The notes under the pieces were generated by a model. It made no database searches, was not told the DNA's origin, and saw nothing but the letters and a program-made list of their open reading frames with translations. The position numbers and the translations under genes are program-made. A DNA stretch of 64,000 nt from Escherichia coli (GTDB taxonomy: Bacteria; Pseudomonadota; Gammaproteobacteria; Enterobacterales; Enterobacteriaceae). The stretch lies in NCBI RefSeq assembly GCF_045037415.1, contig NZ_CP173438.1. One strand, 5' to 3'. Of this stretch, positions 4,316-56,569 are shown piece after piece; positions within the stretch are counted from its first letter, which is position 1; every line of letters starts with the position of its first letter.

Positions 4316-7300
4316 GTGAGGCGATTGCCGGGGATTTTACTGCTTACTGGAGCCGCGCTCGTTGTGATCGCTGCCCTGCTGGTTAGCGGCCTGCGTATTG
4401 CTTTACCGCATCTTGACGCCTGGCGTCCGGAAATCCTCAACAAAATAGAATCCGCGACTGGCATGCCGGTAGAAGCCAGTCAGCTCTCAGCCAGCTGGCA
4501 GAATTTTGGTCCGACGCTTGAAGCGCACGACATCCGTGCAGAACTAAAAGATGGCGGCGAATTTTCGGTTAAACGCGTTACCCTGGCGCTGGATGTCTGG
4601 CAGAGCCTGTTACATATGCGCTGGCAGTTTCGCGACCTCACTTTCTGGCAGCTGCGCTTTCGCACCAACACTTCTATCACCAGCGGCGGTGGTAATGATA
4701 GCCTGGAAGCCAGTCACATCAGCGATCTGTTTCTTCGTCAATTTGACCATTTCGATCTCCGCGACAGTGAAGTCAGTTTCCTGACGCCATCCGGTCAGCG
4801 CGCCGAGCTGGCGATCCCACAGCTCACCTGGCTGAACGATCCACGTCGACACCGTGCGGAAGGCCTGGTAAGCCTCTCCAGCCTTACCGGACAGCACGGC
4901 GTGATGCAGGTGCGTATGGATTTGCGCGATGATGAGGGGTTGTTAAGCAATGGTCGCGTCTGGCTCCAGGCGGATGACATCGACCTGAAGCCGTGGCTCG
5001 GTAAATGGATGCAGGACAATATTGCGCTGGAAACGGCACAGTTCTCCCTTGAAGGCTGGATGACGATCGACAAAGGCGATGTAACCGGCGGTGACGTCTG
5101 GCTGAAACAGGGCGGTGCCAGCTGGTTGGGCGAGAAGGAAACGCATACGCTGTCGGTGGATAATCTGACTGCGCATATTACGCGTGAAAATCCGGGATGG
5201 CAGTTCTCTATTCCCGATACACGGATCACGATGGACGGCAAACCCTGGCCGAGCGGAGCATTGACGCTGGCCTGGATACCGGAACAGGACGTTGGCGGCA
5301 AAGACAATAAACGCAGTGACGAACTCCGGATTCGTGCCAGTAATCTGGAGCTGGCAGGGCTGGAGGGCGTACGCCCGCTGGTCGCGAAACTTTCACCTGC
5401 ACTGGGTGATGTTTGGCGCTCCACACAACCGAGCGGCAAGATTAACACTCTGGCGCTGGATATCCCGCTTCAGGCGGCAGACAAGACCCGTTTTCAGGCA
5501 TCGTGGAGCGATCTGGCCTGGAAGCAATGGAAATTATTACCGGGTGCGGAACACTTCTCCGGGACGCTTTCCGGCAGCGTAGAAAATGGTTTGCTTACTG
5601 CGTCGATGAAGCAGGCAAAGATGCCTTACGAAACGGTATTCCGTGCGCCACTGGAAATCGCCGACGGCCAGGCAACGATAAGCTGGCTGAACAATGACAA
5701 AGGTTTCCAGCTGGATGGGCGTAATATTGACGTTAAAGCCAAAGCCGTCCATGCGCGCGGCGGTTTTCGTTACCTGCAACCTGCTAACGATGAACCCTGG
5801 CTGGGTATTCTGGCTGGCATCAGTACCGATGATGGTTCACAAGCCTGGCGCTATTTCCCGGAAAACTTGATGGGTAAAGACCTGGTTGATTACTTAAGTG
5901 GCGCGATTCAGGGCGGTGAAGCGGATAACGCGACGCTGGTTTATGGTGGCAATCCGCAACTCTTCCCCTATAAACACAACGAAGGTCAGTTTGAAGTGCT
6001 GGTGCCGCTGCGCAACGCGAAGTTTGCCTTCCAGCCGGACTGGCCTGCATTAACTAACCTTGATATTGAACTGGACTTTATTAACGACGGTTTATGGATG
6101 AAAACCGATGGCGTTAATCTGGGCGGCGTGCGCGCGAGTAATCTCACCGCAGTGATCCCTGACTACTCAAAAGAAAAACTGCTGATTGACGCTGACATTA
6201 AAGGTCCGGGTAAAGCCGTTGGCCCTTACTTTGATGAGACACCGCTGAAAGATTCCCTGGGTGCGACCCTGCAAGAACTCCAGCTCGACGGCGATGTGAA
6301 TGCTCGCTTACATCTTGATATCCCGCTGAACGGCGAGTTGGTAACCGCGAAAGGTGAAGTGACGCTGCGTAATAACAGTCTGTTTATCAAACCACTCGAC
6401 AGCACCCTGAAAAATTTGAGCGGTAAATTCAGCTTTATCAATGGCGATCTGCAAAGTGAACCACTGACAGCAAGCTGGTTTAATCAGCCGTTGAACGTGG
6501 ATTTTTCCACCAAAGAAGGGGCAAAAGCCTACCAGGTCGCGGTGAATCTCAACGGTAACTGGCAACCAGCGAAAACCGGCGTTCTGCCTGCAGCGGTGAA
6601 CGAAGCATTAAGTGGCAGCGTGGCGTGGGATGGTAAAGTGGGCATTGAGCTGCCTTATCATGCTGGCGCGACGTATAACGTAGAGCTGAACGGCGATTTG
6701 AAGAATGTGAGCAGTCACTTACCTTCACCGTTAGCCAAACCTGCGGGTGAACCACTATCGGTAAACGTTAAGGTTGATGGCAATCTCAACAGCTTTGAAT
6801 TAACCGGACAGGCTGGTGCGGATAACTATTTCAATAGCCGCTGGTTGCTCGGTCAAAAGCTGACGCTCGATCGTGCTATTTGGGCGGCAGACAGTAAAAC
6901 GCTCCCGCCGTTGCCGGAACAAAGTGGCGTTGAACTCAATATGCCGCCGATGAATGGTGCCGAGTGGCTGGCCCTGTTCCAGAAAGGCGCGGCGGAGAGT
7001 GTCGGTGGTGCAGCGAGTTTCCCACAACACATAACGTTACGTACGCCTATGTTGTCGCTGGGAAATCAGCAATGGAATAACCTGAGTATTGTTTCGCAAC
7101 CGACGGCAAATGGCACCCTGGTTGAGGCGCAAGGGCGTGAAATCAACGCCACGCTGGCGATGCGTAATAACGCGCCGTGGCTGGCGAATATCAAATATCT
7201 TTATTACAACCCAAGCGTGGCGAAAACTCGTGGTGATTCAACACAGTCATCACCTTTCCCGACAACGGAACGCATTAGCTTCCGTGGCTGGCCAGACGCA

Positions 7301-34000: not shown

Positions 34001-35643
34001 GGCGGGTTGGTTACCTGAGCAAACTGCTGGCGGAAGTAGTCGTAAATAATGCGCGGCTGGCTGGAGAGCACGGCGAATGGGGTATCGTCGCCCATCGAAC
34101 CGACCGCTTCCTGACCGTTTTCACCCAGTACGCGGATCACCGAATCCAGCTCTTCCGCGCTGTAGTTAAATTGTTTCTGGTAGCTGGCAAGCGTGTCGTC
34201 GTCCAGTTCGCGGCTACCCACTTCTTCATCGGGCAGATCTTCAAACGGTACCAGACGGCGGACGTTTTTCTCCATCCACTCTTTATAAGGGTGGCGGCTT
34301 TTCAGATCGTCATCGGTTTCTGCCGAGTGCAGAATACGCCCACTGCGGGTGTCGATAACCATCAGTTCGCCTGGCCCCACGCGGCCTTTTTCGACCACTT
34401 CGTCAGGCTGATAATCCCAGATACCGACTTCAGAGGCGCAGGTAATGAGCTTATCTTTGGTGATGACGTAGCGCGCCGGACGCAGACCGTTACGGTCGAG
34501 GTTACAGGCGGCAAAACGACCGTCAGACATCACGATGCCTGCCGGGCCATCCCACGGCTCCATATGCATGGAGTTAAAGTCAAAGAAGGCACGCAGTTCC
34601 GGGTCCATATCCGGGTTGTTCTGCCAGGCAGGTGGCACTAACAGACGCATGGCACGGATGATATCCATCCCACCTGCCAGCAGGAGTTCCAGCATGTTAT
34701 CCATCGAACTGGAGTCAGAGCCGGTTTCGTTGACGAACGGCGCGGCGTCGTGCAGGTCAGGGATCAGCGGCGTCTGGAATTTATAGGTACGCGCACGCGC
34801 CCATTGGCGGTTACCAGTGATGGTGTTGATTTCACCGTTATGCGCGAGGTAGCGGAACGGCTGCGCCAGCGGCCAGCGCGGTACGGTGTTAGTGGAAAAG
34901 CGCTGGTGAAACAGGCAGATGGCCGATTCCAGACGCAGGTCCGCGAGGTCCAGGTAGAAGCGCGGCAGATCCGCCGGCATACACAGACCTTTATAAATAT
35001 TGACCAGATTCGACAGGCTACAGACGTAGAAGTCTTTGTCGGCTTCGAGACGCTTTTCAATGCGGCGGCGGGCGATAAACAGACGGCGCTCCATATCGCG
35101 CGGACGCCAGCCTGCCGGGGCGTTCACAAAAATTTGCTCAATGCGTGGCAGAGAGGAGAGGGCGATTTCACCCAGCACGCCTTCGTTAGTGGGGACATCA
35201 CGCCAGCCCACAATCGACAACGTTTCGCGTTGCAGCTCTTCTTCAACGATGCGGCGTGCGGCAGCGGCGAGTTCAGGATCTTTATTCAGGAAGAGCATCC
35301 CGACGGCGTAGTTTTTTGCTAAACGCCAGCCGCGCTCCTGCGCAACGATGCGAAAAAAACGATCCGGTTTTTGTAACAGCAAGCCGCAACCGTCACCGGT
35401 TTTACCATCGGCGAGAATCGCGCCACGGTGCTGCATGCGGGCCAGTGCGTGTATTGCAGTACGCACTACCTTGTGGCTAGGTTCGCCTTCTATGTGGGCG
35501 ATCAGGCCGAAACCACAGTTATCCCTCTCAAGGGATTTATCGTACAACATATCGTGAACCTCCCCCAGGCTCTGCGGGAACCCCACTTCCGAACCGCTGC
35601 GCACGGGCACAGTAAGAGCGTGGCGACGGGGTTTGCGTGTCAT
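31090..35643 (-). CDS. gltB: Glutamate synthase (NADPH) large subunit
   Basis: ORF-track frame 31090..35658; start chosen at ATG 35643 ([13 protein letters not shown]..., GAGGTG Shine-Dalgarno 7 nt upstream); the 35658 start is possible; 12 bp upstream of gltD. Confidence 0.93.
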
Positions 35644-36224
35644 ACGCGCACCTCGCATTCGCCCCCTTGTTGTCCTTTTCGCATCGGTTAATACGGTGAA
35701 GAGGGGATCTCAATTACTGCATAAATATGATGAGCAGGCTGCTCATCCAGAAAGCTTCCAGCGGATTTCCAACTTATCGGGAAAGCTGATACAGGTCAAA
35801 TGGCAAGCTTATTGGTACAGAAATGTGCTTTAGCGCAAAATTCTTTATTAATTGTATGAAATTAAAGTGGATTTTCTATTTAAGGCTAAAAGGGGTGTCG
35901 TTAGAGAAACAGCCAATTCCTGACTGTCATAAAGGCGTGTTAACCCTTATCCTGCCTTGAATTGATGAGAAAGCCAGCATTTTATACTGCCTTAATTGGT
36001 AATAACGTTTCATGCTACTGTTTTTGCCTAAAATCCATAAGAAGATAAAAAAATCTGACACAAGATAAGCAACAGTGATTTATGTGATTGTGCATGAAAT
36101 TTCGGTAATTTTGATTGGTTATGCAGTTGATAAAAGCAGGCTGGGACGATTGATCCAGGTCATCGCCGAATTGGGCTAAAAATGGCAGGCTTTGGCCTCT
36201 TTTCAAGGCGCGGTCTATCAGATT

Positions 36225-37154
36225 ATGCAGTTACAGAAATTAGTCAATATGTTTGGTGGTGATCTCACCCGTCGTTATGGGCAAAAGGTGCATAAGCTGA
36301 CGCTGCACGGCGGTTTTAGCTGCCCTAACCGTGACGGTACCATCGGGCGTGGCGGCTGCACATTCTGTAATGTTGCCTCGTTTGCCGATGAAGCGCAGCA
36401 GCATCGTTCCATTGCCGAGCAACTGGCGCACCAGGCGAATTTAGTTAACCGCGCTAAACGCTATCTGGCCTACTTTCAGGCGTATACCAGCACCTTTGCG
36501 GAAGTTCAGGTGCTGCGTTCGATGTATCAGCAGGCGGTGAGCCAGGCCAATATTGTCGGTTTGTGTGTTGGTACCCGCCCGGACTGCGTGCCGGATGCGG
36601 TGCTGGATCTGCTTTGCGAATATAAGGACCAGGGCTACGAAGTGTGGCTGGAGCTGGGGCTACAAACCGCCCACGACAAAACACTGCATCGCATAAATCG
36701 CGGTCATGATTTTGCCTGCTATCAGCGCACGACGCAGCTGGCGCGTGAGCGTGGGCTGAAGGTGTGCTCTCACTTAATTGTTGGCCTGCCTGGCGAAGGG
36801 CAGGCTGAATGTTTGCAAACGCTGGAGCGAGTGGTTGAAACCGGCGTGGACGGCATAAAGCTGCATCCGCTGCATATAGTGAAAGGCAGCATTATGGCGA
36901 AAGCCTGGGAAGCGGGGCGTTTGAACGGAATTGAACTGGAGGATTACACGCTCACTGCCGGAGAAATGATTCGCCATACGCCACCGGAAGTTATCTACCA
37001 CCGTATTTCCGCCAGCGCCCGTCGCCCGACGCTGCTTGCTCCGCTGTGGTGCGAAAATCGATGGACGGGAATGGTCGAGCTGGATCGTTATCTGAATGAA
37101 CATGGCGTACAGGGATCGGCGCTGGGACGTCCGTGGCTACCTCCAACGGCGTAG
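36225..37154 (+). CDS. yhcC: Radical SAM family protein YhcC
   Basis: ORF-track frame 36192..37154; start chosen at ATG 36225 (MQLQKLVNMFGGDL...), 309 aa; CxxxGxxGxCxFC radical-SAM-like motif (CPNRDGTIGRGGCTFC). Confidence 0.85.
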   Translation: MQLQKLVNMFGGDLTRRYGQKVHKLTLHGGFSCPNRDGTIGRGGCTFCNVASFADEAQQHRSIAEQLAHQANLVNRAKRYLAYFQAYTSTFAEVQVLRSMYQQAVSQANIVGLCVGTRPDCVPDAVLDLLCEYKDQGYEVWLELGLQTAHDKTLHRINRGHDFACYQRTTQLARERGLKVCSHLIVGLPGEGQAECLQTLERVVETGVDGIKLHPLHIVKGSIMAKAWEAGRLNGIELEDYTLTAGEMIRHTPPEVIYHRISASARRPTLLAPLWCENRWTGMVELDRYLNEHGVQGSALGRPWLPPTA

Positions 37155-41890: not shown

Positions 41891-42035
41891 ATGCTTCTTA
41901 AGGTTTTCTTAAGGTTCTTCTGAAAGTAAAAAGCGCACGAAATGTACAATCGACGTTGATTGATAACGATTTCAGTACGCGCTTTTCTTATTGCCGGGGG
42001 AGCTTGAAGGGATTTGAATGTCAAAGTGATGAAGA

Positions 42036-42308
42036 TTAATCTTCATCAAAACCAGAGTTAAAGAGGGCGATAACGGCGGCCAGTGCTTCCTCTTCCTGTG
42101 GACCGGTCGCTTCAACTTCAATCTGCCGTCCTTTGGCAGAATCCAACATCAGCAGCGCAATAACGCTGTTGGCTTCAGCCTCGGTGCCTTCGTCATTACG
42201 TAACAGCACTTCAGCGTCAAAACCCTGCATTAATTCAAACAGCTTCATTGCAGGCCGGGCATGCATGCCCAGCTTGTTTGTAATTTCAACAGTTTGCTTG
42301 ACGGTCAT
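42036..42308 (-). CDS. npr: Nitrogen-PTS phosphocarrier NPr
   Basis: 90-aa HPr-like [29 protein letters not shown]. Confidence 0.9.
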
Positions 42309-55597: not shown

Positions 55598-56569
55598 TTA
55601 ACGATCGCGTTGAACAGCGATGTGCGCGAGGCCGATAAGTGCTTCTCTCCACGGGGTGTCCGGGAGCACCTGTAACGCTGCGATGGCTTTGTCTGCTTCT
55701 TCCTCGGCACGCTGACGCGTCCATTCAAGAGATCCACAAGCGTTCATTGCTTCCAGAACCGGTTCCAGAAGATGGCGACCGTTACCCTGTTCGATGGCGG
55801 TACGAATCATCTGTGCCTGTTCTGGTGTGCCATGATGCATCGCATGCAGCAGCGGCAGCGTCGGTTTACCTTCGTTCAGATCGTCGCCGACGTTTTTACC
55901 TAACTGTTCGCCATCGGCATTGTAATCGAGTAAATCGTCGATCAACTGGAAAGCAGTGCCGAGATAGCGCCCATAATCTTGTAGGCCTTTCTCCTCCTCC
56001 GGCGTACAGCCAGCCAGAATCCCGGAACACTGCGCGGCAGCCTCAAACAGACGCGCAGTCTTGCTGTAGATAACGCGCATGTAGTTTTCTTCAGTGATGT
56101 CCGGATCGTTAACGTTCATCAGTTGCAGAACTTCACCTTCTGCGATGACGTTTACGGCTTCTGACATGACTTCCAGCACTTTGAGTGAACCGAGGCTGGT
56201 CATCATCTGGAACGCGCGGGTATAAATAAAATCGCCTACCAGCACGCTGGCGGCATTGCCAAATGCGGCGTTGGCGGTAGCTTTACCCCTGCGCATATCT
56301 GATTCATCCACAACGTCGTCGTGTAGCAGAGTCGCCGTGTGGATAAACTCGATCAGGGCAGCAATGGTGACATGCGCATTTCCCTCATAGCCAACAGCTC
56401 GTGCAGCCAGTACAGCAATCATCGGACGAATACGTTTACCGCCGCCGCTGACGATGTAATAGCCTAACTGATTGATCAGTTGGACGTCGGAATTAAGCTG
56501 CTCAAGGATTGCCGCATTAACACCCGCCATATCTTGCGCGGTTAACTCATTGATTTTTTCTAAATTCAT
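55598..56569 (-). CDS. ispB: Octaprenyl diphosphate synthase
   Basis: 323-aa ORF with polyprenyl synthase DDxxD motifs (LLHDDVVDESD; DDLLDY). Confidence 0.95.
   Translation of the reverse strand: MNLEKINELTAQDMAGVNAAILEQLNSDVQLINQLGYYIVSGGGKRIRPMIAVLAARAVGYEGNAHVTIAALIEFIHTATLLHDDVVDESDMRRGKATANAAFGNAASVLVGDFIYTRAFQMMTSLGSLKVLEVMSEAVNVIAEGEVLQLMNVNDPDITEENYMRVIYSKTARLFEAAAQCSGILAGCTPEEEKGLQDYGRYLGTAFQLIDDLLDYNADGEQLGKNVGDDLNEGKPTLPLLHAMHHGTPEQAQMIRTAIEQGNGRHLLEPVLEAMNACGSLEWTRQRAEEEADKAIAALQVLPDTPWREALIGLAHIAVQRDR

Follow-up and report, generated by a model that had tools for sequence, protein, structure and literature searches.

Long untranslated leaders that combine hairpins with blocks complementary to small RNAs (sRNAs) are found in rpoS, a target of DsrA, RprA, and ArcZ, and in the RyhB targets sodB, shiA, and uof-fur. 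Glutamate synthase is under iron-sparing sRNA control in Bacillus subtilis, where FsrA acts on gltAB. The gltB1 gene of Vibrio cholerae has been cited as a RyhB target (PMC5511505), and IsrR exerts iron-sparing control over gltB2 in Staphylococcus aureus (staphylococcal IsrR paper). In these three systems, an sRNA made under iron starvation represses an iron-sulfur (Fe-S) enzyme. Here, we analyze a 19-bp palindrome upstream of gltB in a 64,000-nucleotide stretch of Escherichia coli DNA (RefSeq assembly GCF_045037415.1, contig NZ_CP173438.1; hereafter, the window). Comparison across species indicates that this palindrome is very probably a selected RNA hairpin in the gltB leader. With moderate confidence, we regard it as the DNA image of a conserved stem-loop that forms the first structural element of an Enterobacterales-specific leader of ~217 nt. 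The gltB leader resembles the rpoS and RyhB-target leaders in its length, its hairpins, and its sRNA-complementary blocks.

Together with glutamine synthetase, glutamate synthase carries ammonia assimilation at low ammonium. To our knowledge, work on the control of gltBDF has dealt almost exclusively with the promoter, with Lrp, IHF, Crp, and ArgR as the regulators. The gltB gene lies on the minus strand of the window, and the divergent yhcC gene starts at 36225. A genome comparison found the window sequence in 5,416 of 5,426 E. coli genomes, with 100% identity to strain SK1144; K-12 and the window do not differ across the palindrome, and the K-12 literature is therefore applicable here. As the initial annotation described, the palindrome reads GATGAGCAG-G-CTGCTCATC, its two 9-nt arms matching perfectly around a 1-nt spacer.

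To locate the palindrome relative to the transcript, we placed the published promoter map (Paul et al. 2007, PMC1784095) on the window. The anchors were the 3' part of primer gltP2 (35760-35779, fragment end "+8") and the mutated Crp site at -76 to -55 (35842-35821), with the -35 hexamer 21 bp beyond it. With +1 at the resulting position (Table 1), the palindrome spans about +20 to +38 and thus lies inside the transcribed 5' leader. The earliest 5' end of the gltB 5' untranslated region (UTR) fragments recovered by RIL-seq (ligation and sequencing of interacting RNAs) in enteropathogenic E. coli (EPEC) maps to 35765. The TTGAC of the -35 element is invariant in 16 of 16 genomes aligned from loci found via the GltB protein, and the arrangement TTGACC-N17-TAAnTT also occurs upstream of gltB in other Gammaproteobacteria. 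The initial annotation had called for a comparison with mapped transcription starts and footprints: the palindrome falls downstream of +1, while the footprinted sites for ArgR, Lrp (three sites), IHF, and Crp are all upstream of -50 (PMC1784095). A promoter-like sequence, TAGAAA-16-TACAAT (35878-35851, minus strand), was considered as the gltB promoter and rejected, the published +1 being ~80 nt downstream of it. Since K-12 has AGTCAT in place of TACAAT, this site is strain-specific and probably not the operon promoter.

As RNA, the palindrome folds with a free energy of -11.1 kcal/mol, compared with -2.8 +/- 2.0 kcal/mol for shuffled sequences, none of which (0 of 500) was as low. The window contains 12 occurrences, at 7 loci, of perfect arms of 9 nt or more around a loop of at most 4 nt, against 1.5 in dinucleotide shuffles, and most of the other loci are terminator-like. 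One such palindrome per 64 kb could be due to chance; therefore, the case for selection rests on conservation and comparative data. Likewise, the fold energy of the whole leader as a single sequence is unremarkable (z = -0.06), and the informative signal is comparative only.

We scanned for GltB in one genome per species and recovered 80 loci, 15 from Enterobacterales and 65 from other Gammaproteobacteria. The hairpin is present at the same place in all 15 Enterobacterales loci, which include Citrobacter, Enterobacter, Klebsiella, Superficieibacter, and Mangrovibacter, as well as Yersinia, Pantoea, Photorhabdus, and Acerihabitans; altogether it was seen in five families of the order. A leader profile (nhmmer) gave no match in the 65 gltB loci outside Enterobacterales. 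In E. coli itself, 5,378 of 5,416 genomes show 100% identity over the initial 71 nt of the leader, palindrome included, while the 701-bp spacer is at least 99% identical in only 548 genomes and mostly 95 to 99% identical. The initial annotation had held that a lack of conservation in close relatives would refute a function; what we found was near-complete identity within the species and persistence across families. As a separate observation, TTATGCAG also occurs upstream of gltB in Aeromonas caviae (L017, ~1935-1950) and Vibrio hepatarius (L018, ~1885-1900). Its presence in Aeromonas and one Vibrio, without the rest of the enterobacterial leader, may be due to chance.

Covariation was then examined. 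Leaders from a metagenome scan that used the flanks as anchors and put no constraint on the hairpin region enlarged the set to 93 distinct leaders carrying 41 to 42 hairpin variants, depending on the slice. Standard pairs fill 92.6% of the stem cells in these leaders. Changes on both sides of a pair affect seven of the eight stem pairs (45 cells), and no shuffle matched this score. When the partner strand was slid by one to three columns as a control, pairing fell to 18 to 58%. Arm variants such as GATGAGCA, GATGGGTG, GACGGGTG, CTAGACG, and TCAGAT retain complementarity; in individual genomes, the arms pair as GATGGGCCG/TGGTCCATC, GATGAACA/TGTTCATC, GATGGGTG/CACTCATC, CTAGACG/CGTCTAG, and TCAGAT/ATCTGA. 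All 41 variants fold in register, with free energies from -4.9 to -13.2 kcal/mol. Read on the gltB sense strand, the non-Watson-Crick cells are G·U or U·G in 59 cases and A·C or C·A in 3, an asymmetry that points to RNA from the gltB sense strand and is unexpected for a symmetric DNA operator. Because the sequences are related by descent, independent events are fewer than these cell counts suggest; we estimate 7 to 10 separate compensatory changes or more.

The hairpin is bracketed by two near-invariant single-stranded blocks. In the unbiased alignment obtained via the GltB protein, CUGGAA in the 5' block (35761-35756) and UUAUGCAGU in the 3' block (35724-35716) are each invariant in 16 of 16 genomes. 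We compared these blocks with RyhB and FnrS, whose sequences were verified, and calculated duplex energies in double windows of 16 to 18 nt, since long unconstrained windows gave meaningless duplexes with long loops.

Within the 5' block, GCUGGAAGC (35754-35762) is complementary to RyhB nt 53-61, forming a predicted duplex of 9 bp and -16.3 kcal/mol. This complementarity was spotted before the supplement of the EPEC RIL-seq study (PMC8550237), whose tables list a gltB.5UTR-RyhB interaction with 13 chimeras (odds ratio, 12.1; p = 4.7e-4). The 5' ends of the gltB fragments (3632648-3632695) correspond to window positions 35765-35718 if no indel separates the two strains, and the fragments span the RyhB-complementary block plus the hairpin. 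A further gltB-RyhB site, in the coding region, is represented by 86 chimeras (p = 1e-103; PMC8550237). Thus, two marks of an Hfq-dependent sRNA target, namely Hfq-linked chimeras in vivo and seed complementarity, are present. Elsewhere in the window, perfect 12-nt complements of the RyhB seed, CTGGAAGCAATG, lie on the coding sense strand of yhdP (5518-5529, plus strand) and ispB (55745-55756, minus strand); two such 12-mers were observed, and 0.6 would be expected by chance.

Within the 3' block, UAUGCAGUAAUU is the only 12-mer match to FnrS in the window and the best duplex for FnrS nt 37-80 in the leader and early coding region (-16.3 kcal/mol). FnrS nt 1-82 do not vary among E. coli, Salmonella, Raoultella, Kosakonia, Atlantibacter, and Franconibacter. 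As sRNA and target are both invariant within Enterobacteriaceae, there is no covariation between sRNA and target to score. EPEC RIL-seq recovered 27 gltB-FnrS chimeras (PMC8550237). A third sRNA, GcvB, was found joined to gltB in K-12 by crosslinking, ligation, and sequencing of hybrids on Hfq (Hfq-CLASH; five reads, -17.8 kcal/mol), and the gltB part of the hybrid, GATGCGAAAAGGACAACAAGGGGGCGAATG, maps to the middle of the leader (35658-35687, minus strand). The gltB leader or gene therefore resembles known multi-sRNA leaders in having chimeras with RyhB, FnrS, and GcvB in published interactomes. A preprint on OmrA and OmrB reports only indirect effects on GltB and GltD. In the literature searched, we found no text that discusses control of E. 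coli gltB by FnrS or RyhB.

The hairpin plausibly acts on the transcript rather than as an operator, and its specific role may be that of a platform for sRNAs and Hfq, a proposal that we advance tentatively. We infer that Hfq binds the gltB hairpin. The stem and its AU-rich 3' flank, AUAUUUAU, could serve as a rigid spacer that docks Hfq, and the module as a whole would leave the flanking blocks accessible to sRNAs that base-pair with them. RyhB would pair with GCUGGAAGC on the 5' side in response to iron and FnrS perhaps with UAUGCAGUAAUU on the 3' side in response to oxygen, which would tie the synthesis of glutamate synthase, an Fe-S enzyme, to iron and oxygen status. The output might be mRNA decay, refolding of the leader, or premature 3'-end formation. 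Unlike in the multi-sRNA leaders cited above, the RyhB-complementary block lies ~200 nt upstream of the start codon; therefore, RyhB cannot act there simply by blocking the ribosome-binding site. The locus also differs from RyhB-gltB1, FsrA-gltAB, and IsrR-gltB2 in that the leaders are not homologous and the E. coli element is confined to Enterobacterales according to nhmmer.

Several observations weigh against such a platform. Seventy-eight of the 93 leaders were retrieved with a pattern that fixes 22 flank bases, so that the flanks of that set are invariant because of how it was assembled. The flanks might equally well be conserved for functions at the DNA level in the region transcribed first. 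By our estimate, a lone 8-mer match to RyhB is weak, ~0.3 being expected per leader. An alternative RyhB site at 35666-35651 has a predicted energy of -17.1 kcal/mol and possibly lies within the same RIL-seq fragments, whose coordinates are coarse and whose transfer from EPEC depends on the indel-free alignment assumed above. As for FnrS, 0.85 complementary 12-mers are expected by chance per 64 kb. The FnrS chimeras map to 35610-35521, near the start codon and away from UAUGCAGUAAUU, and the EPEC RIL-seq tables contain no significant FnrS-gltB.5UTR chimera and none at UAUGCAGUAAUU. Weaker FnrS sites, at 35591-35580 and at the gltB Shine-Dalgarno sequence, do fall within the chimera region. Moreover, the Rfam FnrS consensus suggests that the segment of nt 63-74 varies outside Enterobacteriaceae. 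Hence, UAUGCAGUAAUU may be a second FnrS site or a coincidence, and we consider its function doubtful.

Taken together, the covarying hairpin, the flanks matching RyhB and FnrS, and the interactome data point to a post-transcriptional layer in the control of gltBDF. An abundant Fe-S enzyme would in this way be coupled to the supply of iron and oxygen.

The remainder of the leader is structured as well. RNAalifold and pair counts support further helices with compensatory changes at A3 alignment columns 107-109/230-232, 135-139/204-208, and 144-155/187-199. The CCCUCU/AGAGGG helix is paired in 98% of cells, with a double change from U-A to C-G in six sequences of the Pantoea type. Its AGAG strand can alternatively pair with a downstream CUCUU (~35614-35618; 84.5% of cells) and join a long stem, at the foot of which lies the sole leader 3' end in the Term-seq tables (Adams et al. 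2021). This 3' end implies a leader fragment of ~150 nt that arises by premature termination or processing. A second hairpin, GCAAGUCCUCAAACUUGU (A3 columns 77-96), is present in most Enterobacterales genera, but E. coli and its nearest relatives have ACCGUAUU (~35690-35699) instead; the leader of E. coli is thus a reduced version. A pairing of UAUGCAGU with the start codon region proposed by RNAalifold (A3 columns 47-54/280-288) was rejected: it shows no covariation, and a 1-nt deletion breaks it in E. coli. Searches with the Rfam 15 covariance models gave no credible match to the E. coli leader at E <= 10 nor at the Enterobacter, Yersinia, Pantoea, and Photorhabdus gltB loci at E <= 1. The element is lineage-specific, matches no Rfam family, and has no description in the literature searched, which makes the gltB leader a candidate structured RNA without an Rfam family.

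Given the mutually exclusive pairings of AGAGGG beside a premature 3' end, a switch is possible but unproven. The ~217-nt gltBDF leader would then be an undescribed, order-wide cis-regulatory RNA with the hairpin as its first helix, a scenario that we regard as unlikely. Controlled as an attenuator, as a riboswitch, or by a protein, the leader would sense nitrogen, iron, or oxygen status. Contacts with RyhB, FnrS, and GcvB would shift it toward one state or the other, and the ~150-nt fragment might itself serve to sponge up sRNAs.

Another reading is an element of mRNA stability or processing, in which the hairpin would block or steer RNase E or exonucleases and the adjacent AU-rich AUAUUU would be cut. 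How long the gltBDF mRNA or the ~150-nt leader fragment persists would then be determined without any part for sRNAs. RNase E prefers AU-rich single strands beside stems, and the conserved AUAUUUAU resembles such a preferred sequence. The hairpin is stable and conserved, some RIL-seq fragments begin at 35718, just 3' of it, and the leader has a stable 3' end at +149. It shares with hp1 of the ompA 5' UTR its stability, its conservation, and a position near the mRNA 5' end. The ompA type, however, starts within a few nucleotides of the 5' end, whereas the mapped transcription start leaves ~19 unpaired nt before the gltB stem at ~+20, so this hairpin cannot shield the 5' end as in ompA. Overall, we judge a role in stability or processing to be rather improbable.

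The hairpin could also halt RNA polymerase early in the leader, the stem and AUAUUUAU causing a pause or weak termination that times downstream folding or tunes read-through. A terminator scan does flag it (8 pairs, 4 of them G-C, with the tail ATATTTATGC), the hairpin and U-rich tail are conserved, and the competition between CCCUCU/AGAGGG and AGAG/CUCUU could depend on folding order. These features are reminiscent of the trp and pyrBI attenuators, which likewise have a G+C-containing stem, a U-rich stretch, mutually exclusive pairings, and a premature 3' end. Yet the gltB hairpin differs from them in having no 3' end of its own, a broken U-tract, and no conserved regulatory leader peptide. 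In K-12 coordinates, the hairpin spans 3354528-3354546 and a terminator here would end at ~3354550, but Term-seq (Adams et al. 2021) lists no 3' end in 3354400-3354599; thus, no terminator is detected here. Other bases interrupt the U-tract, which is also set apart from the stem (tail AUAUUUAUGC, 5 U in 8). Assignment as a Rho-independent terminator was therefore rejected, as the G+C stem is present while the uninterrupted U-tract and the RNA 3' end are not. We consider a pause or attenuator role quite improbable.

It is less probable still that the hairpin controls a small upstream open reading frame (ORF). The leader contains a 10-codon ORF (MSSLLIIFMQ*) that starts at AUG 35746 in the 5' arm and ends at 35714, with GGAAG, a possible Shine-Dalgarno sequence, 8 nt upstream of the AUG; the hairpin would occlude the AUG, and RyhB could cover the Shine-Dalgarno sequence. 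The AUG is kept in Enterobacteriaceae, and farther downstream an AUG-CAG-stop occurs almost universally, its stop being variously UAA, UGA, or UAG. However, the Yersinia, Pantoea, and Serratia types have ACG in place of the AUG, and two sequences have AUA; each time the opposite arm has changed to compensate, which indicates selection on pairing rather than on the codon. The peptide itself varies, and at least five sequences have UUA where the stop would be. As for the block at 35728-35700, it shows no synonymous-site variation, and its constraint is therefore at the nucleotide level.

The initial annotation had offered two readings of the palindrome, a leader structure and a site for a dimeric regulator. 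The first is supported by its transcription and by the preserved pairing. A regulator-bound operator acting as a roadblock at +20 to +38 is, in contrast, very improbable. In its favor are the perfect 9-1-9 symmetry, a position open to repressor action, and the good conservation of the outer GATG/CATC in Enterobacteriaceae. Nonetheless, the half-sites vary while complementarity is kept, and the wobble pairs show the strong G·U bias described above. By eye, the palindrome has no convincing resemblance to the Fur, FNR, or Crp consensus. Its 9-1-9 geometry and GAT...ATC ends do recall the 19-bp Fur box, but only 10 of 19 positions match the Fur consensus, and its covariation follows an RNA pattern. 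In addition, the footprinted regulators Lrp, IHF, Crp, and ArgR all have their sites upstream of -50, and the gltB-lacZ fusion pPM2005 (35760 to ~36094, ending at +8) retains activation by Lrp and repression by cAMP-Crp (PMC1784095); the palindrome, absent from the published fusions ending at +8, is dispensable for both. Finally, a functionless chance palindrome, although base composition alone gives about one per 64 kb (1.5 shuffle hits with loops of 0 to 4 nt), is effectively refuted by covariation, with order-wide conservation, compensatory substitutions, and near-invariance in E. coli.

Our analysis also bears on the gltB start codon. The start in the current RefSeq K-12 entry (MLYDK) is 93 nt downstream of the ATG chosen in the initial annotation, and the reading frame upstream of it is unconserved, with indels that break it in other genera. 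ATG 35643 is thus an outdated annotation, and the conserved start is at 35550. The 93 nt between the two starts are noncoding leader. The ~95 bp that the initial annotation gave between the palindrome and the gltB start is correct for the old ATG and not for the conserved one, from which the palindrome is separated by 179 nt. Its figure of ~580 bp for the gltB/yhcC control region agrees with the 581 bp that we measured from the old ATG to the yhcC start. The start codon and the 5' UTR length are now fixed for purposes of annotation and engineering.

Table 1. Positions of features of the gltB promoter, leader, and start in the window
Feature	Position	Strand	Remarks
-35 hexamer of the gltBDF promoter, TTGACC	35794..35799	-	Map of Paul et al. 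2007
-10 hexamer, TAAGTT	35771..35776	-	Read from the sequence; 17-nt spacer to -35
gltBDF transcription start, +1 ~35766 +/- 1	35765..35767	-	Published promoter map placed on the window
Conserved single-stranded 5' block, CCGCUGGAAGCUUUCUG	35748..35764	-	CUGGAA invariant (16/16)
Palindrome, very probably leader RNA hairpin P1	35729..35747	-	8-bp stem, 3-nt loop; ~+20 to +38
Conserved 3' block, AUAUUUAUGCAGUAAUUGAGAUCCCCUCU	35700..35728	-	Contains UUAUGCAGU
Candidate second FnrS site, UAUGCAGUAAUU	35712..35723	-	Perfect 12-nt complement of FnrS nt 63-74
CCCUCU-type strand	35700..35705	-	A3 columns 66-71; partner 35662-35667
AGGGGG strand (AGAGGG in other genomes)	35662..35667	-	A3 columns 131-136; partner 35700-35705
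Old gltB start, MTRKPRR...	35641..35643	-	Chosen in the initial annotation; inside the leader
Published RNA 3' end in the leader, ~+149	35618	-	K-12 3354657 (Term-seq); foot of the long covarying stem
Shine-Dalgarno sequence of the true gltB start, GGGGGAGG	35559..35566	-	CUGGGGAGGUUCACUGAUAUG near-invariant before the ATG in all genomes
True gltB start codon, MLYDK...	35548..35550	-	RefSeq NP_417679.2 begins here

Two further observations concern other parts of the window. Term-seq places a gltB-sense 3' end at ~36134 (minus strand; K-12 3354141, plus strand), ~370 nt upstream of the gltB start site and close to where yhcC begins; the tables assign it to the interior of the EcoCyc gene G0-10702. 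At 42027-42048, TGATGAAGATTAATCTTCATCA forms a perfect, loop-less, AT-rich palindrome of 22 bp that looks more like a protein site than a terminator.

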